Source of the DNA: an uncultured Bacilli bacterium
GTDB taxonomy: Bacteria; Bacillota_I; Bacilli_A; RF39; UBA660
Length of the DNA stretch: 64,000 bases
Direction: 5' to 3'
NCBI GenBank assembly: GCA_944350345.1
Contig: CALVOP010000002.1
Location: 68,134-132,133 of the forward strand
This document shows positions 5,906-47,708 of the stretch, piece by piece (the first letter of the stretch is position 1; each line of letters begins with the position of its first letter). The position numbers were made by a program, and so were the translations under genes. The notes under the pieces are model-generated. The model was not told where the DNA came from and made no database searches. It worked only from the letters and a program-made list of their open reading frames with translations.

Positions 5906-7664
5906 AAGAGAATTAATAGACAAATACTTAAAATTTTTTGAAGAAAAAGGGCACAAAATAATTCCAAGTGCCAGTCTAATACCAGAAAATGACCCAACAG
6001 TTTTATTTACAACTGCCGGCATGCACCCATTAGTTCCATACCTTTTAGGAACACCGCATCCAATGGGAAAAAGATTAGTTGACGTTCAAAAATGCATGAG
6101 AACAAGTGACATTGATAGTGTAGGAGACGACACACACTGCACATTCTTTGAAATGTTAGGAAACTGGTCTTTAGGAGATTACTTTAAAGATGAAGCGATT
6201 AAGTGGTCATTTGAATTTTTAACTAATGATAAGTATTTGGCAATTCCATTAGACAAACTTGCATTTAGTGTATTTGAAGGAAATGAAAACGCACCTAGAG
6301 ATAATTATAGTGCAGAAGTATGGAGTAAATTAGGTGTCAAAAAAGAAAACATATACTTTTTAAGCAAGGAACACAACTGGTGGGAACTTGGAAGTGGGGA
6401 AGGACCATGCGGACCAGATACAGAAATGTTTATTAAAATAAAAGAATGCAATAACCCTAATTGTAATCCATCAGATAACTGTGGATGTATGGTTGAAATT
6501 TGGAATGACGTATTTATGGAATATTTAGCAAAAGATGGAAAATATTTGCCACTTGAACACAAAAATGTGGACACCGGGTTAGGTGTTGAAAGAGTCTTAA
6601 TGACACTAAACAATTTATCAAGTGTATATGACATAGAAGTATATAAACTAGCTAGAGAAAAAATAGAAGAACTTACAAATACATTATATGAAGACTATAA
6701 AAAAGAATACAGAATAGTATTAGACCACATAAGAACTGCCACATTTGTACTTGCAGATGACATAAAACTAACGCCATCAAACACAGGTAGAGGTTATGTA
6801 CTTAGAAGACTTCTTAGACGCGCAATAAGATACATCAAAAAAATAACTGATAAAGAAGATATACTAAAAGCAGTTAGTAAGGTATACATTGATTATTATA
6901 AAAACGACTATGAAGAGTTAGGAAGAAATAGTGATTATATTCTAAATGAAATAGATAAAGAGACTAATAGATTTAACAAAACAATAGCTTCTGGAATGAA
7001 AATGTTTCAAAAAACAGAACAAAACTCAAATGGAACAATAGATGGAGAACATGCATTCAAATTATTTGATACATTTGGTTTTCCACTAGAATTCACACTA
7101 GAATTAGCAAAAGAAAAAGGTTTAGAAGTAGACGTAAAAGGTTTTGAAGAAAAAATGAAAGAACACCAAGAATTATCTAGAACAGCATCAAAAGGAGAAT
7201 TCAAAGGTGGACTAGCAGATACATCATATGAAAGCACAAAATATCACACATTAGCTCACATAATGTTAGCAGAATTAAAGAAAATGTTTGGCGAAGAAGT
7301 AATACAAAAAGGACAAAACATAACGCCAGAAAGACTAAGATTTGATTTTCCATTAGATCATAAAATGACAGAAGAAGAAAAAGAAGAATTAACTAACAGA
7401 GTAAATAACGTAATTGCAAAAGGAATAGATGTAACTAGAGAAGAAATGACTTATGACGAAGCAAAGAAAGCTGGAGCTGAAGGAATATTTACAGACAAAT
7501 ATGGAAACACAGTAAGTGTCTATACAATTGGTGATGTTTCAAAAGAGATATGTGGTGGGCCACATGTAAAAAACACAAAAGAATTAGGAACATTCAAAAT
7601 CATAAAAGAAGAAAGTAGTGCAGCAGGAATTAGAAGACTTAAGGTAATATTAGAAGATAAATAA
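5889..7664 (+). CDS. alaS: alanine--tRNA ligase (short form, catalytic plus editing domains, no C-Ala domain)
   Basis: Class II AlaRS N-terminus (FTTAGMHPLVPYLLG), editing-domain motifs (HTLAHIM and CGGPHV) and a T-box upstream. It is 591 aa, versus about 870 aa for typical bacterial AlaRS. Confidence 0.85.
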   Translation: MKNLTRRELIDKYLKFFEEKGHKIIPSASLIPENDPTVLFTTAGMHPLVPYLLGTPHPMGKRLVDVQKCMRTSDIDSVGDDTHCTFFEMLGNWSLGDYFKDEAIKWSFEFLTNDKYLAIPLDKLAFSVFEGNENAPRDNYSAEVWSKLGVKKENIYFLSKEHNWWELGSGEGPCGPDTEMFIKIKECNNPNCNPSDNCGCMVEIWNDVFMEYLAKDGKYLPLEHKNVDTGLGVERVLMTLNNLSSVYDIEVYKLAREKIEELTNTLYEDYKKEYRIVLDHIRTATFVLADDIKLTPSNTGRGYVLRRLLRRAIRYIKKITDKEDILKAVSKVYIDYYKNDYEELGRNSDYILNEIDKETNRFNKTIASGMKMFQKTEQNSNGTIDGEHAFKLFDTFGFPLEFTLELAKEKGLEVDVKGFEEKMKEHQELSRTASKGEFKGGLADTSYESTKYHTLAHIMLAELKKMFGEEVIQKGQNITPERLRFDFPLDHKMTEEEKEELTNRVNNVIAKGIDVTREEMTYDEAKKAGAEGIFTDKYGNTVSVYTIGDVSKEICGGPHVKNTKELGTFKIIKEESSAAGIRRLKVILEDK

Positions 7665-7667
7665 AAA

Positions 7668-7697
7668 GCACATCAATCATGATGTGTTTTATCTTGC
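7668..7697. terminator. putative bidirectional terminator hairpin between convergent alaS and srtB
   Basis: CACATCA-atca-TGATGTG stem-loop followed by TTTTAT. It overlaps the last codons of the minus-strand sortase gene. Confidence 0.35.
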
Positions 7698-8551
7698 CTT
7701 GCTTCTCTTTTGATTAACTTAGCATGTACAACTAGCTTTTCATTATTGGCATAACAAGTAGATAAAGTAAGTATTTTATCATTAGTGCTAACAGAAGTTC
7801 CAAAGTTATGTGCAGTTCTATTATAAATCAATTTAAGAAAATCACTGTATTCACTATCGCTACTAAAATTTACTTTTAAGTAATCACTTGTAGTAGGTAA
7901 ATGGTAAACACTAAAAACTTGCCACATTGTATTTTCATAAGGAGTAGAGAGTTTAATTACATAATTACTTGTATCATCAAGCCATCCACTTTTTAAAATA
8001 TTTTTTAAACTACCAAACATGGTTCTGTCTAGCCTACTATGGCCATATAAAATAGTGTTTTTATCAAAAGTCTCAGAATCATTTCTATAATCCATAAATA
8101 CCCATCCAGCCGAATTCCAACTTTTATCAAAGGCATGAGTTAAATAATAATCATTATCACTAGTTTGAACAATCGGGTAATTGATATTAGTTCCATTTAC
8201 TTGAATCCAACCAACAGAATCCTTGTTTTTTGATAAGAGTTCATTAAAGTCTACATTAATTAAGTTCATTTTAATATAATCCCAGTATGGATCAAATTCA
8301 TCTACTTCATTTTGATTAATAATCTCAGTATTTAAATTATCTGGAACAACAGTTATATTGGTTTTATCGATTAAATCATCAACTTGACTACTTATTTTTT
8401 TATTATCTCTATACCAAGAAATTCCTTCATTTATAGAAATAATTAATAGTGAAATACACAAAAACATGAAAGAAATCAAAAGAACATTCTTCCATTTTAT
8501 TTTAGTTAAACTAATTGATTTTTTAGATTTTTTTTTCTTAACTTTCTCCAT
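7673..8551 (-). CDS. srtB: class B sortase
   Basis: N-terminal TM anchor; GWIQVNGTNINYPIVQ, FMDYRN, ILYGHS and TLSTCY motifs with a downstream Arg, matching the SrtB family pattern. Confidence 0.7.
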   Translation of the reverse strand: MEKVKKKKSKKSISLTKIKWKNVLLISFMFLCISLLIISINEGISWYRDNKKISSQVDDLIDKTNITVVPDNLNTEIINQNEVDEFDPYWDYIKMNLINVDFNELLSKNKDSVGWIQVNGTNINYPIVQTSDNDYYLTHAFDKSWNSAGWVFMDYRNDSETFDKNTILYGHSRLDRTMFGSLKNILKSGWLDDTSNYVIKLSTPYENTMWQVFSVYHLPTTSDYLKVNFSSDSEYSDFLKLIYNRTAHNFGTSVSTNDKILTLSTCYANNEKLVVHAKLIKREARQDKTHHD

Positions 8552-20458: not shown

Positions 20459-20487
20459 GCATATACTTGATTAGTATGTGCTTTTTC
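20459..20487 (+). terminator. rho-independent terminator after mtaB
   Basis: GCATATAC-ttgatta-GTATGTGC hairpin followed by TTTTTC. Confidence 0.5.
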
Positions 20488-20599
20488 AATTTGTTTTTAA
20501 AAAAAGCAGCTTTCTAAGGGTGCGATATGGAAAGTATAAAAACATTTGTTTCTTTAAAAATTTTAGTTATAATTTGATCTAATTCAAGTGATATTTTTT

Positions 20600-21830
20600 A
20601 CGTATATTTACTTCTTTTAAAGTATATACATTTTCAACAATGGTGCTAATATAGTTTCATAAAAAGCTTTAATAACTAGACATTCAGTACAAGGGTTAAA
20701 ACATTGTAATTTAGTTTTTTTTATTATATAGTTGATGGTGGCTATTTTTAAATTTAATAGAATTGCCATTGTCAATTTTTTAGTACTTAAAATAGCTAAA
20801 TTATAATTAATTTTTTTCTTTAGAAGGAGATTTTTCGTAAGCATTAGAATATTGCTTATAATTTAAAGCAAAACGATTATTAAAATTTGGAATAAAAGTA
20901 TTTGTTAAATATCCATTATACATTCAAATTTTAATTTTTGAATTTCCCTTCCTTGAAAAGTTTAATTAGTTCTTTCGATAGTACCTTTAGATTGTGAAAC
21001 ACTAGTAGTTTTTAAATCAGTGTTTAAAATCGAACAAGCATATCCATATTGAGTTAAAACATCTTTATCACTAGTTCTTTTATTTGGGTTTAAGGATATA
21101 TAATTAAATACAGTACGATTGTTAGCTAAAAACTTACAAGGAATACCATGATTAGTAAGTATTTGATATAAAACATTATAATAACCATTTAATGTTTCTG
21201 CTTTATCAAAATATGCTCCAACAATAGTAGAAGTAGCTTTGTCTATTGCAAGATGTAAACAAGTTTTAAAATTACCAAACCATTGATGAATAGAACCGTC
21301 TTGTTCAATAATTTCACCAAAGTATTTAAATTTTTCCCACGTGGATGAGAATCTTCTAAAACAATTTCATGATTAACTATAATTTCAATTTCATCGTTAG
21401 ACATACCATTATTAATTTTCTTTTCTTTTAAAAGCTTTTGCTTAGCATATTTTCGTTTTGTTTTCTTTCTGGCTTTAGGATATAAAATACCTTCTTTGGT
21501 TAGAGTTTTATAAATGAAATCATATGATACATTTATATTTTCATTCATCTTTAAAATAATTAAATTTAAAATCATAGTATTTTGTCTTATAAAGTAGTAT
21601 AATATCTTCGGAAATAAATTTATCTAATATATTCATAAGCTTTTTTAAGCGGTTGCCATGAATAAAAGCATATTTTCCATTTTCCTTATATTTAATTATT
21701 AGACAATTAATTTGTCTTCTAGATAAATTAAGTTTAATAGCAGCGTTATTTTTATTACTGTTATGATCTACTAGTTCTTTGATAACATCATATTTTTTTT
21801 ATTCATTCTTAATTCAGCCCTTCTCATTAA
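20600..21830. mobile_element. degenerate IS element remnant (rve-type DDE transposase family, possibly IS481/ISNCY-like)
   Basis: Minus-strand transposase reading frames are broken into at least three frames. An N-terminal HTH segment is followed by a catalytic fragment (DGSIHQWF...SKGTIERTN). The remnant lies directly upstream of the surface-protein gene. Confidence 0.6.
20950..21815 (-). pseudogene. transposase pseudogene (frameshift in an A8 tract after codon 5, plus at least one further frameshift)
   Basis: MNKKN then a stop in frame A. Inserting one A into the A8 run gives a continuous ...YDVIKELVDHNSNKNNAAIKLNLSRRQINCLIIKYKENGKYAFIHGNRLKK reading. The downstream rve core is in a third frame. 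Confidence 0.55.
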
Positions 21831-21937
21831 GTCACCTCGGCGACTTATTATATCTTAAATTGAGACATTTTCAAAAGATAACACTTAAGACATTATCATA
21901 AGATAATCATATTTACTCTATCATTTTTTAATTTCAA

Positions 21938-21966
21938 TTGACAATGTTTCACACTAAAAGTATAAT
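21938..21966 (+). promoter_or_regulatory. consensus sigma-A type promoter (TTGACA-17-TATAAT) for the surface-protein gene
   Basis: Exact TTGACA at 21938-21943, a 17-nt spacer, exact TATAAT at 21961-21966. A GTAGGTG RBS and the ATG at 21988 follow. Confidence 0.55.
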
Positions 21967-21987
21967 TTATCTTAGAGTAGGTGTCAT

Positions 21988-24675
21988 ATGAAAAATAGAG
22001 TAAAAATAATAATAACGGTTACAACATTGTTAGTAATAATGATAATAAGTGGTACGTATGCGTGGTTTAGTACAAGAGTAGAAGGAAATGGAGCTCAAGT
22101 AGTAGTAACAACAGGAGAATTAAAATTAATATACACTGATACATTAACAATAAATGAGCCAAATATAGAACCAGGATGGAAATTGACAAAAACATTTACA
22201 GTAGAAAATACATCAAATGAAGAAAGATATTATAAAATAGTATGGAAAGATTTAATAAATACATTTGTAAATACAGAAGATTTAACAATAACAATAACAA
22301 GTACAAATGGTGGAGGGAATTTAGAAAAGACACCAATACAAAGTAGTAGCACCCCAGGAAATTATGATATAATTCCAGGAGTTACAATAGCAGGTAAGAC
22401 AGTACAAGAATATACTGTAACTTTTGAATATGCATATAGAGAAGAAGATCAAAGTGCAGATATGGGTAAAACATTTAGTGGAAGCATAGAAATAGAAGCA
22501 TTAGAAAGCGAATACACGGAAGCATATTTGTATGCACAGATACTAGAAGACAATCCAAATGTAAGTGAAAGAACAGATTTTAGCATAGTATTTACAGAAA
22601 GTAACAATGGAAACACAATATATAAAGCAAGTGGCCAAGACGGAAAAGATACATATTATTTTGCAGGGACTGTTACGAACAATTATGTTAGTTTTGGAGG
22701 ATACTACTGGAGGATAGTAAGAATAAACGAAGATAATAGTGTAAGACTCATATATGCAGGAACAAGTGCAACAGATACAGCGGCATTTATAAATATTTAT
22801 CAAGCATATAACTCAAGTTATGATAATAGTTCATATATAGGGTATATGTATACAGCAAGCGAGCAATATGGAACGGGAACAAATAGTAGTATAAAAACAA
22901 CAATAGATAATTGGTACAGTAGTAACTTGAATAGTTACTCAGGATATATAAGTAAGACAGCAATATACTGTAACGATAGAACAGTGGCAAGTGGAACATG
23001 GAGTGCAACAGGAAGTAGTTTTGACTATGCGGCAAGAGAAAGACTATATACAAATAAAACACCAACGTTTGTATGTAGTAATGCAAATGATAGGTTTACA
23101 GCAAGTACAACAACAGGAAACGGAAAACTAACATATCCAATAGGACTGATCACAGCAGACGAAATAAGTTATGCAGGAGGATTATGGGAAACAAATAACT
23201 CAAACTATTATATAGCCCAGAACGCATCGAGTGGAGCAGGTTACTGGTGGACAATGAGTCCGTACAACTGGCTTGGCCGGAACTCTTTCGTGTTCAGCGT
23301 GGGTGGGTCTGTTGACACTGGTAACTTGGACCGCTGGTACGTCGACGACGCGCTCGGCGTGCGTCCCGTAATTTCTCTGAAATCTTGTGTGCTATACTCT
23401 GGAGGAAGTGGAACGGCAAGTGATCCATATACAGTAAGCTTGACGGATGAATGTGCTAATGTAGAAGATGAGATACTAGAAGAAAATACAGTAAGAGTGA
23501 GCGCAACAACAAATGATGCAAGTATGGCAACAGTAAATGCGCCAAGTTCAGTAATAATAAATAGTGGAAGCAGTCATACATTTACATTTACAGTAAAAGA
23601 TGGGTATGAATATGAAAGTGTAACAGGATGTAATGGAACATATGATACAAGCACAAATAAATTAACAGTAAGCAATGTAACAAGTAGTACAACATGTCAA
23701 GTTAATTTCAAAGAATATATTCCATATTTATATAGTACTATTTTGAAAGATAACCCGAATGTAAGTGAAAGAACAGATTTTAGCATGGCATTTACAACAA
23801 GTAATAATGGAAATACAATATATAGAGCGACAGGTCAAGATAATAAAACAACATATTACTTTGCAGGGACTGTTACGAACAATTATGTTAGTTTTGGAGG
23901 ATACTACTGGAGGATAGTAAGAATAAACGAGGATAATAGTGTAAGGCTTATATATGCAGGGACAAGCGCAACAGATACTGCAGCATTTATAAGTACAAGC
24001 CAAGCATATAACTCAAGCTCTAATAATAGTGCATATGTAGGATATATGTACACAGCAAGTCAACAATATGGAACTAATACAAATAGTCCAATAAAAACAG
24101 TAGTAGATAACTGGTATGTAAGTAACTTAAATAGTTACTCAGGATATATAAGTAAGACAGCGATATACTGTAACGATAGGAGAGTAGGAAGTGGAACATG
24201 GAGTGCAACAGGAAACACATTCTACTATAGAGCATATACAAGACTACAAACAAATAAAACACCAACATTTGTATGTGGTAATTCTAATGATAGATTTACA
24301 GCAAGTACAAGTACAGGAAATGGTAAATTAACATATCCAATAGGAATGATCACAGCAGATGAAATAAGTTATGCAGGAGGATTATGGGCAACAAATAACT
24401 CAAACTATTATATAGCCCAGAACGCATCAAGTGGAGCATCGTGGTGGTGGACAATGAGTCCGATCAACTGGAATAGCAGCGGCTACGCTAGCGTGTTCGT
24501 CGTGGGTGGGTCTTCTAACACTGGCTACTTGAGCAACGGCGGCGTCATCAACGCGTACGGCGTGCGTCCCGTAATTTCTCTGAAATCTTGTGTTCTTGCC
24601 TCTGGAGGAAGTGGAACGGCAAGTGATCCATATACAGTAGAGTTACCTAGTGCGTGCTCAAGTGCAGAAAACTAA
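21988..24675 (+). CDS. large secreted/surface protein with SipW-cognate-type signal peptide and two copies of a ~300-aa repeated domain joined by an Ig-like linker
   Basis: The N-terminal ...SGTYAWFST motif is characteristic of SipW-dependent signal peptides. An internal duplication (YYWRIVRINEDNSVRLIYAGTSATDTAAF ... GVRPVISLKSCV...GGSGTASDPYTV) occurs twice. The linker ECANVE...TCQVNFK is shared with the paralog at 44976. Confidence 0.75.
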   Translation: MKNRVKIIITVTTLLVIMIISGTYAWFSTRVEGNGAQVVVTTGELKLIYTDTLTINEPNIEPGWKLTKTFTVENTSNEERYYKIVWKDLINTFVNTEDLTITITSTNGGGNLEKTPIQSSSTPGNYDIIPGVTIAGKTVQEYTVTFEYAYREEDQSADMGKTFSGSIEIEALESEYTEAYLYAQILEDNPNVSERTDFSIVFTESNNGNTIYKASGQDGKDTYYFAGTVTNNYVSFGGYYWRIVRINEDNSVRLIYAGTSATDTAAFINIYQAYNSSYDNSSYIGYMYTASEQYGTGTNSSIKTTIDNWYSSNLNSYSGYISKTAIYCNDRTVASGTWSATGSSFDYAARERLYTNKTPTFVCSNANDRFTASTTTGNGKLTYPIGLITADEISYAGGLWETNNSNYYIAQNASSGAGYWWTMSPYNWLGRNSFVFSVGGSVDTGNLDRWYVDDALGVRPVISLKSCVLYSGGSGTASDPYTVSLTDECANVEDEILEENTVRVSATTNDASMATVNAPSSVIINSGSSHTFTFTVKDGYEYESVTGCNGTYDTSTNKLTVSNVTSSTTCQVNFKEYIPYLYSTILKDNPNVSERTDFSMAFTTSNNGNTIYRATGQDNKTTYYFAGTVTNNYVSFGGYYWRIVRINEDNSVRLIYAGTSATDTAAFISTSQAYNSSSNNSAYVGYMYTASQQYGTNTNSPIKTVVDNWYVSNLNSYSGYISKTAIYCNDRRVGSGTWSATGNTFYYRAYTRLQTNKTPTFVCGNSNDRFTASTSTGNGKLTYPIGMITADEISYAGGLWATNNSNYYIAQNASSGASWWWTMSPINWNSSGYASVFVVGGSSNTGYLSNGGVINAYGVRPVISLKSCVLASGGSGTASDPYTVELPSACSSAEN

Positions 24676-34532: not shown

Positions 34533-35510
34533 ATGAAAAAAGATAAATTTTTATTATTGTTACAAGGTCTTGAACAAATTGGGGTTGCAGAAGAAGAATT
34601 ATTAAAAGTATTAAATTTGGATGAAAATATATTAGATTTATTAGCTAGTGTAAATTTAATGGAATTAAATGAATATGTTAATATAATTGAACTGTATCCA
34701 TTAGCAAATTATAATCTTCGCGAAATAATTATGATTTTAAGAAATGCTAAGCATTTTTGTGTAACTGCAGATGTTTTGTTAAGTAAAAGATTAATTGAAG
34801 CAGGGATTGTATTAGAAGGTGCTAGAATAGTAAATGAGTCAAAAGAATATTTTAATGCCAAATATGCGAGCCAAGTTTTAATGGATGAGGGTGCAGTAAG
34901 GTCTGGTATAGCTCTAGAAGGGGCAAAAATAATAAATGAGTCAAAAAAATATTTTAATGCTAAATATGCGAGCCAAGTTTTAACGGATGAAAGTGCGGTA
35001 AGATCTGGTATTTCTTTAGAAGGGGCAAAAATAATAAATGAGTCAAAAGAATATTTTAATGCCAAATATGCAAGCCAAGTTTTAACAAATGAAGATGCAA
35101 TAAAATCCGGCATAGCATTAGATGGTGCAAAAACAATAAATGAATCCGATAACGAATTTAATTCCCAATATGCGAGCCAAGTTTTAATGGATGAGGGTGC
35201 AATAAAATCCGGCATAGCATTAGAAGGAGCTAGAATAATAAATGAGTCAAAAAAATATTTTAATGCTAAATGTGCCAGTGAATTTTTATTAAATGAAAGG
35301 GCATTAGAATTAGGCAATGCTGTCACATTGGCTACAAAAGCAAATGAACTTAAACATCCTTTTGAACGTCAATATTTAATTAATTACTCTGGTATTTATG
35401 AGCAAAAAAAAGATTACAATTTTGGTGATTTTATTTCAAGTGTAGAATGTGCGAACACTGATGACATTGATGTTGATGAATTTGTTAAAAGATTGATTCC
35501 AAGAAAGTAA
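34533..35510 (+). CDS. hypothetical protein with five tandem 34-aa repeats
   Basis: Repeat unit SGIALEGAKIINESKKYFNAKYASQVLxDExAVR occurs five times (102-bp period). No recognisable family. Confidence 0.6.
   Translation: MKKDKFLLLLQGLEQIGVAEEELLKVLNLDENILDLLASVNLMELNEYVNIIELYPLANYNLREIIMILRNAKHFCVTADVLLSKRLIEAGIVLEGARIVNESKEYFNAKYASQVLMDEGAVRSGIALEGAKIINESKKYFNAKYASQVLTDESAVRSGISLEGAKIINESKEYFNAKYASQVLTNEDAIKSGIALDGAKTINESDNEFNSQYASQVLMDEGAIKSGIALEGARIINESKKYFNAKCASEFLLNERALELGNAVTLATKANELKHPFERQYLINYSGIYEQKKDYNFGDFISSVECANTDDIDVDEFVKRLIPRK
34803..35310 (+). repeat. 102-bp coding tandem repeat, about 5 copies
   Basis: Direct nucleotide repeats visible in the sequence (gaaggtgctagaatagtaaatgagtcaaaagaatattttaatgccaaatatgcgagccaagtttta...). 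Confidence 0.7.
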
Positions 35511-37193: not shown

Positions 37194-38411
37194 ATGAAAA
37201 TAATTTTAAAAAAATATTTGTTTCCAATCACAGTACTTATAGCAATTGTAATTGGTACATTTATTGGAATATATGCACCTAATTTTGCAAAAGCAATAAA
37301 ACCGTTTGGAGACATTTTTTTAAATTTAATGTTTACAATAGTTGTCCCATTAGTTTTTGTAACAATTGCCAGTTCAATTGCTAACATGGTTAATATAAGA
37401 AGATTGGGAAAAATAATGGGAAGAATGTTTTCAGTGTTTTTTGTTACATGTGCTATTTCAGCTGTAGTTATGCTTATTGCAACTATAATTTATGATCCGG
37501 CTGTAGGTACAAATATTACTGTTGAAGCGGGAGAGGCTGTAGAGGCTACTAATATTGGTGAAAAAATTGTCGCAGCATTGACTGTAACAGACTTCAGCGA
37601 GTTATTAAGCAGAAGTAATATGCTACCATTAATTGTATTCACTATATTGGTTGGAATTGGAATAAGTACATTAGGGGAGAAAGGAAAAAAATTAGCAGAA
37701 ATGCTAAGTATTGCAAGTCAAGCCATGATGAAAGTTGTAAAGTACATTATGTATTACGCACCATTTGGCCTTTGTGCTTACTTTGCATCATTAGTTAGTG
37801 TGTTTGGGGCAGCGTTACTAGAGGGTTACATAAAAGCATTTATTTTATATACCGTTGTTGGAATTATATATTTTTTAGTTTTTTACACTATATACGCTTA
37901 TGTAGCGGGTGGAATAAAAGGGATTAAATTGTTTTACAAAAATGTGTTAACACCAACTGCGACAGCTCTTGCAACTCAGTCGAGTTTAGCTAGTTTACCT
38001 AGCAATCTAGAAGCAGCAAAAAACATTGGTGTTAGAGAAGATGTAAGAGAGGTCTGTTTACCGATAGGAACCACTATGAATATGCATGGTAGTGTAATGG
38101 GAGCAATTTTAAAAATAGCATTTTTGTTTACTGTATTTGGCGAGTCATTTGGTGGTATTGGAACATTTGCAATAGCAATTTTAATAGCAATCTTGAGCGG
38201 GATGGTAATGTCGGGTATTCCTGGTGGCGGTTTGATTGGCGAGATGCTAATAGTTAGTTTATACAATTTTCCGGTTGGAGCGTTTGCAATAATTGCAACG
38301 ATTGGGATAGTTATTGATGCACCGGCAACTGCCGTTAATGTTGTAGGAAACACAGCAACATCAATGTTAATCAATAGGTTTACTGAAGGAAAAAATTGGG
38401 TAAAAAAATAA
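37194..38411 (+). CDS. dicarboxylate/amino acid:cation symporter (DAACS/SDF family)
   Basis: Multi-TM protein with the conserved SSLASLPSNLEAAKNIGVRE reentrant-loop region typical of GltP/SstT-type transporters. Confidence 0.75.
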   Translation: MKIILKKYLFPITVLIAIVIGTFIGIYAPNFAKAIKPFGDIFLNLMFTIVVPLVFVTIASSIANMVNIRRLGKIMGRMFSVFFVTCAISAVVMLIATIIYDPAVGTNITVEAGEAVEATNIGEKIVAALTVTDFSELLSRSNMLPLIVFTILVGIGISTLGEKGKKLAEMLSIASQAMMKVVKYIMYYAPFGLCAYFASLVSVFGAALLEGYIKAFILYTVVGIIYFLVFYTIYAYVAGGIKGIKLFYKNVLTPTATALATQSSLASLPSNLEAAKNIGVREDVREVCLPIGTTMNMHGSVMGAILKIAFLFTVFGESFGGIGTFAIAILIAILSGMVMSGIPGGGLIGEMLIVSLYNFPVGAFAIIATIGIVIDAPATAVNVVGNTATSMLINRFTEGKNWVKK

Positions 38412-40539: not shown

Positions 40540-40799
40540 TCTTCTTTTTATTATTAGTTTGTACTAATTTTTACAGTGTTATTGAATTTTAAATAAATTT
40601 TTATGGATTTTTTCTTTTTTTATGTTAAAATTAATGTATAGATAATAGTTAATTGTATATGTTATGCAAAAATAGTTTTATATAGTATATGTAAGCTAAC
40701 TGTGTAATTGTGCCATTAAGAGAAAGGTGGTGTATTCGAGATTGTTTTCTCGATAATAGTATGTTTTTTTTAGATTTTGTTTGTAATTCTTCAGGATTA

Positions 40800-41792
40800 A
40801 TGAAATTAGTTTATTTTATTAAGTTACTTTTACAGATAATATGTATAGTTACTCCAATAATAATTATTGTTTCATCTATGATACATTTAGTTAGTCAGTT
40901 AATGAAAAGTGAAATAACTTCTGTAACATGGAGTGCTTTGGTGCAGAAGATTGTTTTGGGGGTAGCTGTTTTTTTAGTGTTACCATTAGTTAATTCAATT
41001 ATGATATTGTTAGATCAAGATGATTTAGAAAATACTTCGTGTTGGAAAAATGCAAATTTAGAAAATATTGCAAGTTTAGAGGCTGCTGAGAAAGACAAAT
41101 TATTAGCTGAAATTGAGGCAGAAAAGAACAAAGAAGAGCAAGATAAATTTGAAGATCAAGTAAGTGACAATATAAATGGATCTACAAGTAATGGAAGCAG
41201 TAGTGGAAGCAGTAGTGGAAGCAGCAGTGGAAGCAGTAGTGGAAGCAGCAGTGGAAGCAGCAGTGGAAGCAGCAGTGGAAGCAGCAGTGGAAGCAGCAGT
41301 GGAAGTAGTTCATCTTTGTCTTATGGTTCACCTTGTACAGGTTACGTGTCATCTAGTTCATACAATCAAGCAACTGTTAATAATTTAATTAATAAAGCTA
41401 AAACGTACATAGGTACTCCTTATAAAAAAATGGATTGTTCTGATTTTGTTGGTAATGTTTATTCGGATTATTTAGAAAGTTCATATGCTGCTGGTCAGGC
41501 TAATGAAACTAAAAATAAATGTGTTGCACGAGATGATATTAGGCCAGGAGATGTGTTTTTTACTAGTTGCTATGATACTAGAGGCGTTTGCAATCATTGT
41601 GGAGATAGATGTAAAAGGTGGAAATGTATTCTGCATGTTGGCATAGTACTTACAGTTAGAGGCGATAAAATTGTGTCAATAATTCACTCTGCTTCTAAGG
41701 GAGTACATATTCAAACAAGTCCATCATATAGGTATAGCCCAAATTCTAATGGAAATTCTTGGTATATTATGGTAACTAGGCCGTACGCATAA
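40800..41792 (+). CDS. NlpC/P60 family peptidoglycan peptidase with signal anchor and Ser/Gly repeat linker (copy 1)
   Basis: C-terminal NlpC/P60 domain (DCSDFVGNVY Cys, ILHVGIV His), N-terminal TM (MKLVYFIKLLLQIICIV...) and (SSG)n low-complexity linker. The track ORF extends upstream to a GTG at 40710. Confidence 0.7.
   Translation: MKLVYFIKLLLQIICIVTPIIIIVSSMIHLVSQLMKSEITSVTWSALVQKIVLGVAVFLVLPLVNSIMILLDQDDLENTSCWKNANLENIASLEAAEKDKLLAEIEAEKNKEEQDKFEDQVSDNINGSTSNGSSSGSSSGSSSGSSSGSSSGSSSGSSSGSSSGSSSGSSSSLSYGSPCTGYVSSSSYNQATVNNLINKAKTYIGTPYKKMDCSDFVGNVYSDYLESSYAAGQANETKNKCVARDDIRPGDVFFTSCYDTRGVCNHCGDRCKRWKCILHVGIVLTVRGDKIVSIIHSASKGVHIQTSPSYRYSPNSNGNSWYIMVTRPYA
41193..41305 (+). repeat. coding simple-sequence repeat (ggaagcagy)n, about 11 units, encoding (GSS)n
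   Basis: Tandem 9-bp units are visible in the sequence; copy 2 has only about 2 units. Confidence 0.8.
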
Positions 41793-43780: not shown

Positions 43781-43865
43781 TGGTGCAGGTGACAGGAGTT
43801 GAACCTGCACGCCGTAAGGCGCTAGATCCTAAGTCTAGTGCGTCTGCCAATTTCGCCACACCTGC
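43781..43865 (-). tRNA. tRNA-Leu (anticodon TAG), long variable arm
   Basis: 85-nt minus-strand cloverleaf gcaggtg...cacctgcacca. Anticodon stem ctaga/tctag, loop CT-TAG-GA, long variable arm, encoded CCA. Confidence 0.8.
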
Positions 43866-43904
43866 GTTAAAAAGGTAGTTTTAACAACTACTTAAATTAC
43901 ATAG

Positions 43905-43981
43905 TGGTGGATCTTGCAGGACTCGAACCTGCGACCGCCCGGTTATGAGCCGGATGCTCTAACCAACTGAGCTAAAGATCC
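43905..43981 (-). tRNA. tRNA-Met (anticodon CAT; elongator Met or Ile2-lysidine type not distinguishable)
   Basis: 77-nt cloverleaf ggatctt...aagatcc-a-cca with G1-C72 paired, anticodon loop CT-CAT-AA, and three G-C pairs at the base of the anticodon stem. Confidence 0.8.
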
Positions 43982-44039
43982 GTGACTATATATTACCACA
44001 ACACTTAATATATTACAATATAAAAATTAAAAAAGCAAA

Positions 44040-44850
44040 CATTTTATAAATTGAAAAGTTAAGTGTCCGAAAAGGAAATAAAAAAAGACACATATTGTTA
44101 CCTATGATACAATGTAAGTGATGGACAAACATTGGAGGTAATAAATATGTGTCATTTAAATTATAGCAAAAATAAATCAAATATATAAACATTTAACTTT
44201 CACAGAAAGAACAATGATTGAAACTTGGTATAACTGTGACAAAAGAAGTAAAAAAGAAATCACTGAGTTATTACATAAAAGTGAAAGAACAATAAGAAGG
44301 GAAATAAAACGAGGAAAAGTAATTGTAAAGGGCTATTTGTGGGAAGATTTAGAAGAATATAGTGCAAGGATAGCACAAGGAAAGTATGAATACAAAATGA
44401 CTGGAAAAGGACCTTCGTTAAAATTAGATCAAGACATAAATTTAGTTAAACAAATTGAAAAGGAAATAGTTGAAAATAAAAAATCTCCTAAAATTATAGT
44501 TGTTGAGCTAAATGAAAATATGGAAAAAGATTTTATGATAAATTTAAAACAATAACATTTGATAATGGCATGGAATTTATGGATTATAAAGGTATGGAAA
44601 AATCTTGCTTAAGAAAAAGAAATAGAACTGAAATATATTATGCTCATCCATATTGTTCTGGAGAACGAGGAAGTAATGAAAATAATAATAGATTAATACG
44701 AAGATGGATACCGAAGGGAACGTCAATAGATAATATATCAAAAGATTTTATAAACAAAATAGAAAATTGGATAAATAATTATCCAAGAGCTATGTTTTAC
44801 TATAAAAGTTCAAATATGATAATATCAAATATATAAAAACTTATATTTTA
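44040..44850 (+). mobile_element. IS30-family insertion sequence remnant with internal deletion
   Basis: Left-end region gtgtccgaaaagg...gacacata. An N-terminal HTH fragment and a C-terminal fragment (HPYCSGERGSNENNNRLIRRWIPKGT, matching the IS30 [24 protein letters not shown] block) are separated by a stop, and the DDE middle is missing. Confidence 0.65.
44214..44836 (+). pseudogene. IS30-family transposase pseudogene (two fragments: 44214-44555 and 44570-44836)
   Basis: As above; together the fragments are about 200 aa, versus about 340-380 aa for an intact IS30 transposase. Confidence 0.6.
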
Positions 44851-44912
44851 GGTAATAAAATGTGCGGGTGCTTAATATTTCAATTTATATTTTTTATTTT
44901 TTTATGGGATTA

Positions 44913-44942
44913 TTGACAGCATTAATAAAAATGGTTTATAAT
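44913..44942 (+). promoter_or_regulatory. sigma-A-like promoter (TTGACA-18-TATAAT) for the second surface-protein gene
   Basis: TTGACA at 44913-44918 and TATAAT at 44937-44942, immediately downstream of the IS30 remnant. Confidence 0.45.
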
Positions 44943-44975
44943 ATTATTAATATAAATATAGTAGGAGTAATTATT

Positions 44976-47708
44976 ATGAAAAAAGGAAAATTTTATTTAT
45001 TTGTTGTAACTTTATTAGTAATAATTAGTTTTGCTTCTTTCATTTTGGTTTTGTTTAAAAATGATGATAGGGAAAAAATAAATGAAAAAAAAGTAGATGA
45101 AAGTAAAAATCAAATGATAGCATTTACTGTTGAGGGCGAAAATATAAATATAAATTTTCCTCAAAAAGGGGAAGGGTATAAGGGAGAAAGTGTAACATGT
45201 ACAAATGGAATAACAGGAGTATGGAATAATGATACGTGGAAATTAGAATTAAGTAATGTTTCTGCAGTTACAAATTGTACAATAAATTTTATAGAATATA
45301 CACCATATTTATATGAAAAAATATTGGAGGACAACCCGAATGTAAGTACAAGGACAGACTTTAGTACAATATTTACAGAAAGTAATAATGGAAACACAAT
45401 ATATAGTGCAACAGGACAAGATAACAAGACAACATACTACTTCGCTGGACAAGTAACAAATAACTATGTAAAATTTGCAAATAAGTACTGGAGAATAGTA
45501 AGAATAAACGAAGATAATAGTGTACGCTTAATATATGCAGGAACAAGTGCAGATGATACTGCAGCATTTATAAGTACAAGTCAAGTATATAACTCAAGCT
45601 ATAATAATAGTGCATATGTAGGATATATGTATACGGCAAGCGAACAATATGGAACAGGAACAAATAGCTCAATAAAAACAACAGTAGATAACTGGTACAC
45701 AAGTAACTTGAATAGTTACTCAGGATATATAAATAAGACAGCAATATACTGTAACGATAGAACAGTGGCAAGTGGAACATGGAGTGCAACAGGAAGTACA
45801 TTCTACTATGCTGCATATGCAAGATTATATATAAATAAAACACCAACGTTTGTATGTAGTAATGCAAATGACAAATTCACAGCAAGTACAAGTACGGGAA
45901 ACGGAAAACTAACATATCCAATAGGACTAATAACAGCAGACGAAATAAGCTACGCAGGTGGATTGTGGGCAACAACTAACTTAAACTATTATATAGCCCA
46001 GAACGTATCGAGTGGAGCATCGTGGTGGTGGACAATGAGTCCGAGCTACTGGAATGGCAACTACGCTCGCGTGTTCATCGTGGGTGGGTCTTCTTACACT
46101 GGCTACTTGAGCTACGACTGGACCAACAACACATACGGCGTGCGCCCTGTAATTTCATTGAAAGCTTGTGTTATTGCCTCTGGAGGAAGTGGAACGGCGA
46201 GTGATCCGTATATAGTAAGCTTGGCTGAGGGATGCGCTAATGTAGAAAATGAGATACTAGAAGAGAATACAGTAAGAGTAAGCGCAACAACAAATGATGC
46301 AAGTATGGCGACAGTGAATGCGCCAAGTTCAGTAACGATAAATAGTGGGAGCTCTCATACATTTACACTTACAGTAAATAGTGGATACGAGTATGAAAGT
46401 GTAAGTGGATGTAATGGGGTATTTGATACAAACACAAATCAGTTAACAGTAAGTAATGTAACGAGTAATACAACATGTCAAGTAAACTTTAAATCAAACA
46501 ACCATACAGTAAATATGAATGTAAGTGGCGGAACAATAAGTCCAACGAGCGCAACAGTGAGTCATGGCTCAAGTAAAACATTTACTGTAACCGCAAGTAC
46601 AGGGTATACAACAACAGTAAGTTGTACAAACGGAGTAAGTGGAGGTATAAGTGGAAGCACAGTAACAGTAAGTAATGTAACAAGCAACACAACATGTACA
46701 GTAACATTACCATCAAAGACATATACAGTAAGTGCAGCACCAAATAGTACAACATATGCAACAGTAAGTGCCCCAAGTTCAGTATCGGTAAGTCATGGAG
46801 GAAGTCATACATTTACATTTAGTGTAAAAACAGGATATGAATATAGTAGTTTAAGTAATTGTACAGGAGGAAGTTACAATAAAAGTACAAACAAATTAAC
46901 AGTAAGTAATGTAACAAGCAACAGGTCATGTACTGTAAACTTTAAAGCAAAAACATATACAATAACTTTTAATGCTAGAGGAGGAACAGGGGGACCAACA
47001 ACTGTATCAAAGACACATGGAGTGACTTTAACGTTACCTACAACAAAACCGACAAGAAGTGGATACACATTTGCAGAGTGGAATACAAAATCAGATGGAA
47101 CAGGTACAGCATATGCCCCAGGAGCATCATATACAGGTAATGCAAATGCGACACTATATGCAAGGTGGTTAGGGTCAAATACTTATACAATACAAGCAAC
47201 AAGTACAAATTCAGGGCAGTATAGTAGTTGGACAAGTAACTGGTATAATAATTATTACGAAATGAGCCATGAACGAGTAGGAAGAACTGCATCAGGAATA
47301 CCAGGAGGGACATCATATGCAATAAATATATTATTTAACCTTGAACCATACAGGGATAAAGAGGTAACAAAAATACTATTATATATAAATGTATTAAATG
47401 AAGCATCATGGCAATTTAGTATAGATCATAAATATAATAACACGGCAACAGGAGCTTCAGCAGCACAAGCGTGGGCAACAGTAGGATATAATAGTAGTGG
47501 AGTAGGATACACAAAGAGAGTAGATGTACATAGGAATGATACAGTGGTAGGATGGAATGCGATAGATTTAACGGAGTATGGATTACCAGATTATGGATAT
47601 GTATTAGGGCCAAAGAGCTCGAGTGTTACAAATTATTGGAGAATAAGTAGAACAGTAGGTAGTGGAGGGAAACCATACTTAGTTATAACAGTAAAAGAAG
47701 AAGTATAA
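44976..47708 (+). CDS. large surface protein: signal anchor, one copy of the ~300-aa repeated domain, Ig-like repeats, Listeria-Bacteroides-type repeat and a C-terminal domain
   Basis: Start moved to the ATG at 44976 (MKKGKFYLFVVTLLVIISFA...) after an AGGAG RBS. It shares the YYWRIVRINEDNSVRLIYAGTS...GVRPVISLKACV domain and the GCANVENEILEENTVRVSATT linker with the 21988 gene. YTITFNARGG...GYTFAEWNTKSDGTG...LYARW matches a Flg_new/Listeria-Bacteroides repeat. Confidence 0.75.
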   Translation: MKKGKFYLFVVTLLVIISFASFILVLFKNDDREKINEKKVDESKNQMIAFTVEGENININFPQKGEGYKGESVTCTNGITGVWNNDTWKLELSNVSAVTNCTINFIEYTPYLYEKILEDNPNVSTRTDFSTIFTESNNGNTIYSATGQDNKTTYYFAGQVTNNYVKFANKYWRIVRINEDNSVRLIYAGTSADDTAAFISTSQVYNSSYNNSAYVGYMYTASEQYGTGTNSSIKTTVDNWYTSNLNSYSGYINKTAIYCNDRTVASGTWSATGSTFYYAAYARLYINKTPTFVCSNANDKFTASTSTGNGKLTYPIGLITADEISYAGGLWATTNLNYYIAQNVSSGASWWWTMSPSYWNGNYARVFIVGGSSYTGYLSYDWTNNTYGVRPVISLKACVIASGGSGTASDPYIVSLAEGCANVENEILEENTVRVSATTNDASMATVNAPSSVTINSGSSHTFTLTVNSGYEYESVSGCNGVFDTNTNQLTVSNVTSNTTCQVNFKSNNHTVNMNVSGGTISPTSATVSHGSSKTFTVTASTGYTTTVSCTNGVSGGISGSTVTVSNVTSNTTCTVTLPSKTYTVSAAPNSTTYATVSAPSSVSVSHGGSHTFTFSVKTGYEYSSLSNCTGGSYNKSTNKLTVSNVTSNRSCTVNFKAKTYTITFNARGGTGGPTTVSKTHGVTLTLPTTKPTRSGYTFAEWNTKSDGTGTAYAPGASYTGNANATLYARWLGSNTYTIQATSTNSGQYSSWTSNWYNNYYEMSHERVGRTASGIPGGTSYAINILFNLEPYRDKEVTKILLYINVLNEASWQFSIDHKYNNTATGASAAQAWATVGYNSSGVGYTKRVDVHRNDTVVGWNAIDLTEYGLPDYGYVLGPKSSSVTNYWRISRTVGSGGKPYLVITVKEEV

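Follow-up and report, generated by a model that had tools for sequence, protein, structure and literature searches.

The stretch of DNA considered here, referred to below as the window, comprises 64,000 nucleotides of a contig (CALVOP010000002.1, assembly GCA_944350345.1) from an uncultured Bacilli bacterium. Two of its genes encode predicted secreted or surface proteins in which three short GC-rich islands lie in frame near the end of a domain of ~300 residues; two of the islands are in the open reading frame (ORF) at 21988–24675 and one is in that at 44862–47708. The window is otherwise AT-rich (27.8% GC), and segments of 120 nucleotides have a mean GC content of 0.278 with a standard deviation of 0.066. 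The islands, each of ~150 nucleotides, reach 120-nucleotide peaks of 0.61, 0.59 and 0.56, about 4.5 standard deviations over that mean; the intervals by which they were originally delimited have GC contents of 0.596 (23215–23370), 0.571 (24420–24575) and 0.536 (46010–46160). Their edges are abrupt, with GC rising from ~0.33 to ~0.58 and then falling back, and the AT skew passes from ~+0.3 to negative values, i.e. A is depleted. Outside the islands, a GC content of at least 0.48 per 120 nucleotides is attained at two places only, namely 41163–41361, which holds a 12-nucleotide repeat of Ser and Gly codons, and 43781–43981, which holds the genes for tRNA-Leu and tRNA-Met. The repeat itself (41163–41330, within the plus-strand ORF 40710–41792) consists of ~10 copies of the unit AGY AGT GGA AGC and is translated to poly(Ser-Ser-Gly-Ser), a linker within a protein of the NlpC/P60 type; it is the sole other non-tRNA part of the window at about 0.54 GC.

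The three copies of the domain were aligned codon by codon, and the core of each island was defined as running from immediately after the residues WWTMSP to immediately before GVRP. In the cores, variable sites are distributed over codon positions 1, 2 and 3 as 21, 13 and 5, compared with 31, 37 and 81 in the flanking parts of the domain (Fisher p = 1.7e-6). The core alignment has 31 codon columns, of which 21 vary with a change of amino acid and one varies synonymously only; the corresponding numbers for the flank are 48 and 58. C occupies 57% of third positions in the core and 12% in the flank; for A the values are 1% and 47%. This is reflected in the codons for individual residues: Asn is encoded by AAC ten times and by AAT twice in the core (flank, AAT 45 and AAC 35), and Tyr by TAC 11 times and never by TAT (flank, TAT 51 and TAC 20). 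Residues that are constant in the core are written in codons free of A, such that Val is GTG and not GTA, Gly is GGC, GGT or GGG and not GGA, Ala is GCT or GCG and not GCA, Arg is CGN and not AGA, and Pro is CCC or CCT and not CCA, whereas the flank encodes constant residues by the A-containing synonyms. Among sites that are invariant in the three copies, A makes up 11% in the core and 46% in the flank (p = 2e-7). The copies thus differ at the amino-acid-changing positions of NNC codons that are set in an A-free scaffold. Each core is followed by a tail of 35 nucleotides, which in copies 1 and 2 opens with the A-free, GC-rich 12-mer GGCGTGCGTCCC and continues with 23 conserved nucleotides; core 1 and the GC-rich start of its tail together have a GC content of 0.61.

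A preliminary description of this DNA, made from the sequence alone, had reported three GC-rich islands, their in-frame placement in a repeated domain and the use there of GC-rich synonymous codons. The sliding-window GC profile confirms the local deviation, the ORF translations and the alignment of the three copies confirm the placement, and the comparison of core with flank codon usage confirms the codon choice. It had also stated that the islands differ from each other at many synonymous sites, which is not the case given that 21 of the 22 varying core codon columns change the amino acid. The idea that GC richness is kept at the nucleotide level holds in spirit, although what is maintained is the absence of A from constant positions and the fixed third-position C of the variable codons, rather than GC itself.

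Related copies were collected by scanning for the scaffold pattern and by protein homology, from metagenome-assembled genomes of uncultured gut Bacilli and from human-gut metagenomes, giving a total of 14 distinct GC-type cores. In eight distinct cores of 93 nucleotides, from the window and related strains, A occurs in none of the 42 invariant columns and is present in 38 of the 51 variable columns; in four cores of 96 nucleotides, it is present in 30 of 33 variable columns. Third-position C accounts for 52–67% of the codons in the 14 cores and third-position A for 0–3%. The A-free scaffold and the tail are near-identical among GC-type cores, while the flanks diverge by 15–25%, and GGCGTGCGTCCCGTAATTTCTCTGAAATCTTGTGT or a close variant lies directly 3′ of every one of them. 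There are, in addition, four AT-type paralogous copies in related strains (among them P0014 at the murC–recD2 locus and the L006 copies at 6597 and 9008), in which the same segment has a GC content of 29–43%, with C at 3–11% and A at 19–31% of third positions and no NNC pattern. GC-rich coding is therefore not demanded by the domain itself, and the GC-rich state goes with hypervariability. The AT-rich coding of the same segment in paralogues argues both against a generic constraint at the protein level and against an imported module. L006 also holds a member of 1225 residues with three copies of the domain, only one of which is of the GC type.

The first of the two proteins in the window has an N-terminal hydrophobic segment and a camelysin/TasA-like region (Pfam Peptidase_M73, 29.4 bits), followed by two tandem DUF6273-type domains of ~300 residues with an immunoglobulin-like spacer between them; a variable region is found at the end of both copies. 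The match to DUF6273 (PF19789) is 40.4 bits against a cut-off of 23.5 and falls in two stretches, covering profile positions 114–172 of 172, such that the variable region maps to the last third of the domain, near its C-terminus. In the second protein, a single DUF6273-type domain that contains a variable region is followed by immunoglobulin-like repeats, a Listeria–Bacteroides repeat and an unassigned C-terminal domain. Its DUF6273-type domain is 78–85% identical to the copies in the first protein, despite which a Pfam match to DUF6273 is absent at E <= 0.01; PF19789 is carried by many homologues. DUF6273 has been described as a C-type-lectin-like domain of proteins targeted by diversity-generating retroelements (DGRs), with the variable region at its C-terminus (PMC11792537, PMC10743442). 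An AlphaFold2 model of domain copy 2 (23716–24672) has a predicted local distance difference test (pLDDT) value of 92.9 and a predicted template-modelling (pTM) score of 0.92. When compared with BFVD, it matches phage DUF6273 proteins with E-values of 1e-4 to 4e-3 and probabilities of 0.97–1.0, the TM-scores being modest (0.3–0.56); a Foldseek comparison with the PDB gave weak, non-significant matches only, several of which are C-type lectins. From these sequence and model comparisons, a location is predicted for the islands at the end of the DUF6273 (C-type-lectin-like) domain that is C-terminal and binds the ligand, in proteins that are secreted or at the surface.

We consider that the three islands are variable regions (VRs) written by a DGR, a system in which a reverse transcriptase serves to rewrite the ligand-binding tip of a protein. 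The element has possibly since been lost, and, with this included, we put the probability that a DGR wrote the islands at roughly 85%. The preliminary description had listed a diversification target among several options, and it is this option that is supported by the NNC codon variation, the A-free invariant columns and the position at the C-terminus of DUF6273. The VRs in the window would be non-adjacent targets, with the template repeat (TR) and the reverse transcriptase outside the 64 kb. It is known that DGRs randomise template adenines only (PMC3240598). In the scheme envisaged, a TR elsewhere in the genome would be transcribed, as is established for DGRs and assumed here, and the DGR reverse transcriptase would copy it to cDNA, misincorporating opposite template adenines. 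Replacement of the VR by the cDNA would follow, with the conserved GC-rich 3′ boundary GGCGTGCGTCCC as the anchor. Because only template adenines vary, constant positions need adenine-free codons and would be written as GTG, GGC/GGT/GGG, GCT/GCG, CGN, CCC, TCT, TTG and TTC; the variable positions would be AAC or AAT codons in the template, which are unable to become stops. Mutagenesis would turn A into G, C or T at most variable sites, and the avoidance of A combined with the randomisation of adenines would lead to the rise in GC. In a genome of 28% GC, with a coding strand that is ~43% A, the expected result is an A-poor patch of ~100 nucleotides with 55–60% GC, a negative AT skew and a fixed third-position C.

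Such a mechanism would account quantitatively for the codon tables of core and flank, and, with ~16 fully variable codons, each VR could exist in something like 10^18–10^20 variants. The 35-nucleotide tail, and GGCGTGCGTCCC within it, is a candidate for a 3′ boundary similar to an initiation of mutagenic homing (IMH) element, a role suggested by its sequence and position. An IMH is GC-rich, lies at the 3′ end of the VR and is succeeded by a short region in which VR and TR differ. That the 14 cores keep their A-free scaffold and tail amid flanks that diverge by 15–25% suggests either that they are copied anew from a template time and again or that the element was lost very recently; activity of a DGR in this strain at present is unproven by the sequences compared. 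The features concerned are collected in Table 1.

Table 1. Putative DGR target genes of the window and the features assigned within them.
Feature	Position	Strand	Basis and remarks
Target gene 1, 895 residues	21988..24675	+	Translation; exact protein on record on one 134,461-bp contig
Domain copy 1 (NPNVS...SGGSGTASDPY)	22552..23430	+	Codon alignment of three copies
Variable-region core 1, 31 codons, YNWLGRNSFVFSVGGSVDTGNLDRWYVDDAL	23263..23355	+	NNC codon pattern, A-free constant positions
Conserved 35-nucleotide tail of copy 1, GGCGTGCGTCCCGTAATTTCTCTGAAATCTTGTGT	23356..23390	+	Same in copy 2 and most GC-type copies of other strains
Domain copy 2	23752..24633	+	Codon alignment; AlphaFold2 model
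Variable-region core 2, 32 codons, INWNSSGYASVFVVGGSSNTGYLSNGGVINAY	24463..24558	+	Codon alignment; exceeds cores 1 and 3 by one codon
Conserved 35-nucleotide tail of copy 2, identical to that of copy 1	24559..24593	+	Sequence comparison
Target gene 2, ORF as listed 948 residues	44862..47708	+	Translation; Pfam Flg_new 62.6 bits
Variable-region core 3, 31 codons, SYWNGNYARVFIVGGSSYTGYLSYDWTNNTY	46044..46136	+	Codon alignment
Tail of copy 3, five substitutions against the consensus tail (CGC CCT ... TCA TTG AAA GCT)	46137..46171	+	Sequence comparison

A template can be predicted from the VRs alone by placing AAC wherever codon positions 1 and 2 vary; it reads aaC aaC TGG aaT ... aaC GTG TTC aaC GTG GGY GGG TCT .... 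In its longest form the prediction is CCG AAC AAC TGG AAT RGC (AAC/AGC 0-2x) AAC AAC GCT AAC GTG TTC AAC GTG GGY GGG TCT TCT AAC ACT GGC AAC TTG AAC AAC AAC AAC GTC AAC AAC ACG AAC GGC GTG CGT CCC. A protein search with the corresponding peptide, WWTMSPNNWNSNNANVFNVGGSSNTGNLNNNNVNNTNGVRPVISLK, retrieves ORFs of 38–80 residues that carry ...GNLNNNNVNNTNGVRP.... One of these ORFs belongs to the cassette used as a control, L014 (Candidatus Saccharibacteria, GCA_017404685.1), which has the gene order target of 928 residues, template ORF, ORF of 152 residues and RVT_1 reverse transcriptase. When its TR is compared with the VR of the target, 24 of 24 mismatches upstream of the boundary GGGGTGCGTCCG are at TR adenines; L014 is a textbook DGR. 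The template predicted blind from the VRs of the window shares the architecture of the L014 template. The scaffold ...GNL....V..[TA].GVRP of the window is similar to the TR peptide ...GNLNNNNVNNTNGVRP of L014, and GGCGTGCGTCCC is similar to the boundary GGGGTGCGTCCG. L014 and the window differ in that the target, TR, 152-residue ORF and reverse transcriptase of L014 lie within 5 kb, whereas the window lacks the last three. A search for a reverse transcriptase or a copy resembling a template, which the preliminary description had proposed as a check, led to real TRs of the same DGR family by way of the predicted peptide, and to neither a template nor a reverse transcriptase in the window or the fetched loci. 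The template ORFs so retrieved were considered as the cognate template and rejected, being genuine members of the same family but not the cognate one. Also set aside as templates were the copies L001–L004 from the pattern scans described below, all of which are variable regions inside homologous genes, and the GC peak at 43781–43981, which is accounted for by tRNA-Leu and tRNA-Met on the minus strand.

There are a number of observations that weigh against a DGR as the source of the islands. A DGR is expected to have a TR some 90% identical to its VR, with the differences at adenines, and a reverse transcriptase (RVT_1) of the DGR clade that is usually accompanied by an accessory gene of the Avd type. 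Searches of the 64-kb window with the islands (nhmmer, blastn) return the three copies only, with no TR-like fourth copy, and a cognate TR was also not found in about 310 kb of related loci. A Pfam scan of 44 of the 46 listed window ORFs of at least 150 residues, and of the small ORFs near both genes, revealed no RVT_1 or Avd-like gene (the two unscanned ORFs are antisense overlap ORFs inside 34533–35510 and 37194–38411). Neither the window nor the fetched related loci (375 kb in all) contain a tblastn match to the reverse transcriptase of L014, and no reverse transcriptase was found near the close homologues at the murC–recD2 and rpmF–hrcA loci. Scans with the scaffold pattern gave VR-type copies or nothing: representative genomes yielded L001–L003, metagenome contigs L004 and viral contigs, scanned with two patterns, none. 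A blastn search of phage genomes with the predicted template gave no match. However, non-adjacent or remote targets have been reported for 45 of 372 DGRs, some of the targets being >100 kb away (PMC5758913). The absence of a TR and a reverse transcriptase from the window is thus compatible with a DGR, although membership is formally incomplete.

Other difficulties concern the VRs themselves. Their cores come in three lengths (93, 96 and 99 nucleotides), and A is never seen in 13 of the 51 variable columns of the 93-nucleotide cores; together these go beyond one template and imply either several templates or some ordinary mutation. Four adenines in the sequence ACA ATG AGT, directly 5′ of the core, never vary, so that the 5′ boundary is uncertain. 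Phage DGRs have a GC-rich hairpin or cruciform with a stem of 7–10 bp and a 4-nucleotide GRNA loop, located 4–34 bp downstream of the VR, a feature described as conserved but not universal (PMC3240598). A canonical GC-rich hairpin with a 4-nucleotide loop was not found downstream of the VRs of the window, where there is only a 5-bp AT-rich stem (ATTTC/GAAAT, 3-nucleotide loop) that is also plain coding sequence; copy 2 alone has an additional 6-bp stem with a 17-nucleotide loop, and the DNA downstream of the VRs folds no better than shuffled sequence. Finally, identical VRs are found in three independent metagenomes, in which the 4.6-kb flanks are identical too, and a near-identical VR is found at the hrcA locus in two samples. 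Turnover of the VRs is not demonstrably fast, and the three samples with identical VRs are uninformative because their flanks are identical as well.

The two genes belong to a family that is dispersed and whose copy number differs among strains. In related strains (L005, L006, L018, L010–L013), members are found at other intergenic sites between housekeeping genes, namely murC–recD2 and rpmF (L32)–hrcA; these sites are empty or differently filled in the window. Comparison of the same locus with that of another strain shows a divergence of 1.2% in the 6-kb flank, 11% over the gene and ~32% in VR1, and is among the observations in favour of a DGR. Same-locus comparisons of this kind were considered as a readout of DGR activity and rejected, since the whole gene is mosaic and not the VR alone. 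Recombination among paralogues is therefore a second layer of variation. A related observation is that, of the eight other assemblies extending to the gene at 21988–24675 (L019–L026), seven have a contig end 490–1470 nucleotides into its homologue, equivalent to ~22500–23460. The gene is a systematic assembly breakpoint, which is consistent with paralogous repeats, with a heterogeneous population or with both, and has no discriminating power.

The only serious rival is a version of the same mechanism in which the VRs are fossils, that is, they were written by a DGR in the past, the retroelement has since been lost from the lineage or strain, and static relics are being reshuffled among paralogues by ordinary recombination. 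Evidence for this includes the failure to find a TR or reverse transcriptase in the window, the related loci or the pattern scans, the occurrence of three length classes, the identity of VRs across independent samples and the mosaic nature of the gene throughout between strains. It also includes scaffold changes that are not at adenines (GGC/GGT, TCT to GTT, GTC to ACC and the five in the tail of copy 3), and the AT-type paralogues resemble decayed former VRs. The changes in the copy-3 tail may, from their sequence, denote either a different subfamily or a decaying target. However, GC-rich third positions that are no longer maintained should decay at 28% GC, yet the 14 cores retain their third-position C and have almost no A there, and the absence of the element has been tested in a small part of the genome. 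We therefore regard fossil VRs as rather unlikely.

The remaining explanations do without templating altogether. The abrupt jump in GC and back is what would be seen if a short module from a high-GC donor, or a gene-conversion patch, had not yet shifted in composition towards that of its AT-rich host. The patch, however, is only ~100–150 nucleotides long and in frame within a domain that is otherwise AT-rich, and its three copies have a common scaffold and differ at codon positions 1 and 2 only. The presence of C specifically at third positions and the specific avoidance of A are unlike generic GC enrichment. The same residues are encoded AT-rich by paralogues in the same lineage, and a high-GC homologue is not required. 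Import from a high-GC donor, which the preliminary description had raised, is accordingly highly improbable. It had also raised an embedded RNA structure or antisense element, and it is true that GC-rich RNA folds stably, that the plus strand of copy 1 has a folding z-score of −1.86 and that the antisense frames are open across the segment. The other five combinations of strand and copy have z-scores from 0.0 to +1.1–1.3, the predicted folds differ between the copies, and the positions that would have to pair are the hypervariable ones. No Rfam family was found at the islands, and a nucleotide-level constraint of this type (RNA or DNA) is hardly to be expected. Diversifying selection on adhesins is common, and the segment corresponds to a region of surface loops in a lectin-like domain; it might thus be supposed that selection on the protein alone, acting on a binding loop rich in Gly, Ser, Asn and Tyr and accompanied by a local codon bias, would suffice. 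Selection on amino acids would not, however, fix C at third positions in a genome that prefers NNT or NNA, nor strip A from the constant codons of residues that paralogues encode AT-rich, and we find this explanation barely plausible.

If the VRs are the work of a DGR, there is the further question of how it reaches them. It is conceivable, though we advance it only tentatively, that a single DGR, or a small number of them, acts in trans on a large family of surface proteins, dispersed and recombining, in a lineage of uncultured low-GC gut Bacilli, the two-domain protein included, and that there are perhaps several templates (corresponding to the 93-, 96- and 99-nucleotide classes); alternatively, a DGR borne by a phage or other element might keep the VRs fresh. 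Were a trans-acting or extrachromosomal DGR involved, paralogues that lose their link to the template would decay to an AT-rich state, thereby providing a built-in clock of target gain and loss. Should the family be serviced by a DGR with several templates or by an extrachromosomal one, the islands would gain somewhat in interest.

DGR targets with the same Pfam domain and a C-terminal VR are known from phages, namely the gut phage ‘tentaclins’, the target2 proteins of phages nd4 and nd12, and proteins of the Faecalibacterium prophages Lelie, CP11, Roos and Pioen. Phage DUF6273 proteins match the domain of the window at the level of fold, and ORFs encoded by real TRs have the same N-rich motif (...NLNNNNVNNTNGVRP) as the template predicted here. 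The genes of the window differ in being chromosomal, located between housekeeping genes (miaB-like and polC in one case, tRNAs and lon in the other), and members of a dispersed paralogous family; they have no adjacent TR, Avd or reverse transcriptase, and one of them contains two complete variable domains in tandem. The TvpA family of Treponema denticola and LdtA of Legionella are examples of cellular DGRs with remote or non-adjacent surface or secreted targets. In the Lineage-4 DGRs (Wu et al. 2018, PMC5758913), VR genes are likewise scattered in the chromosome far from the reverse transcriptase and encode surface or secreted proteins. In contrast to these systems, no cognate TR or reverse transcriptase has so far come to light for the window, there are three VR length classes and the host is one of the uncultured low-GC gut Bacilli. 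The DGR of Bordetella phage BPP-1, which diversifies Mtd, has in common with the window the adenine-specific variation, the logic of the AAC codons, the placement of the VR at the 3′ end of the domain used for binding, and a 3′ boundary of the VR that is rich in GC (PMC3240598). It differs in its domain family, in having a pure GC run of the (GC)14 type, where the 12-mer of the window has two Ts, and in having a downstream GC hairpin of 7–10 bp with a GRNA loop.

The mechanism, the family of the target domain and remote targeting have thus all been published already, and the islands leave the current understanding of DGRs unchanged; it is rather that a known mechanism explains a striking compositional anomaly. 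Specific to the present case are the host, an uncultured gut bacterium of the Bacilli at 28% GC, a protein with two variable domains that are both complete, a dispersed family in which maintained targets occur beside decayed ones, and the extent of the contrast in composition. A practical rule for AT-rich genomes follows, namely that the VRs of DGRs are to be looked for as A-poor, GC-rich islands of ~100 nucleotides in which C is fixed at third positions and which are located at the 3′ end of lectin-like domains, and they can be found from composition alone even when far from a reverse transcriptase. The findings also suggest that a lineage of uncultured human-gut Bacilli invests in hypervariable, adhesin-like surface proteins. 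The apparently decayed former targets in the family should be useful for the study of turnover in the target repertoire of DGRs.

Some features of the surroundings of the two genes are of interest in their own right. The hydrophobic segment and the Peptidase_M73/camelysin-like (TasA-type) region of the first protein are encoded at its very start (21988–22200), and a sortase gene (7673–8551) lies 14 kb upstream. Immediately upstream of the same gene is a very AT-rich, gene-poor spacer of 1.5 kb (20459–21987); a minus-strand ORF of 110 residues within it (21243–21575) has no Pfam match and is called in six related strains too. The second gene is likely to start at the methionine of MKKGKF near 44976 rather than at the beginning of the ORF as listed. 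The region upstream of it (43781–44836) contains tRNA-Leu(TAG) and tRNA-Met(CAT) on the minus strand, then two ORF fragments of 113 and 88 residues with a weak HTH_38 match; these fragments, directly upstream of the gene, have the appearance of an IS30-like transposase that has degraded. In related strains (L003, L004, L007–L009), the homologous target genes likewise have flanking insertion sequence genes, of the rve type.

Elsewhere in the window, the plus-strand ORF at 34533–35510 (325 residues) contains five tandem repeats of 102 nucleotides (34691–35347) that are 62–82% identical to the reference copy. It has no solid Pfam match, the only one being to a choline-binding repeat and below threshold, and is probably a repeat-containing wall or surface protein. 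A large serine recombinase with Resolvase, Recombinase and Zn-ribbon domains is encoded at 55264–57333, flanked on one side by two unassigned minus-strand genes (738 residues, with a weak HopA1 match, and 191 residues) and on the other by a T-box leader (58150–58339) ahead of pheS/pheT; the region from 52146 to 58339 may be the remnant or the edge of an integrated element.

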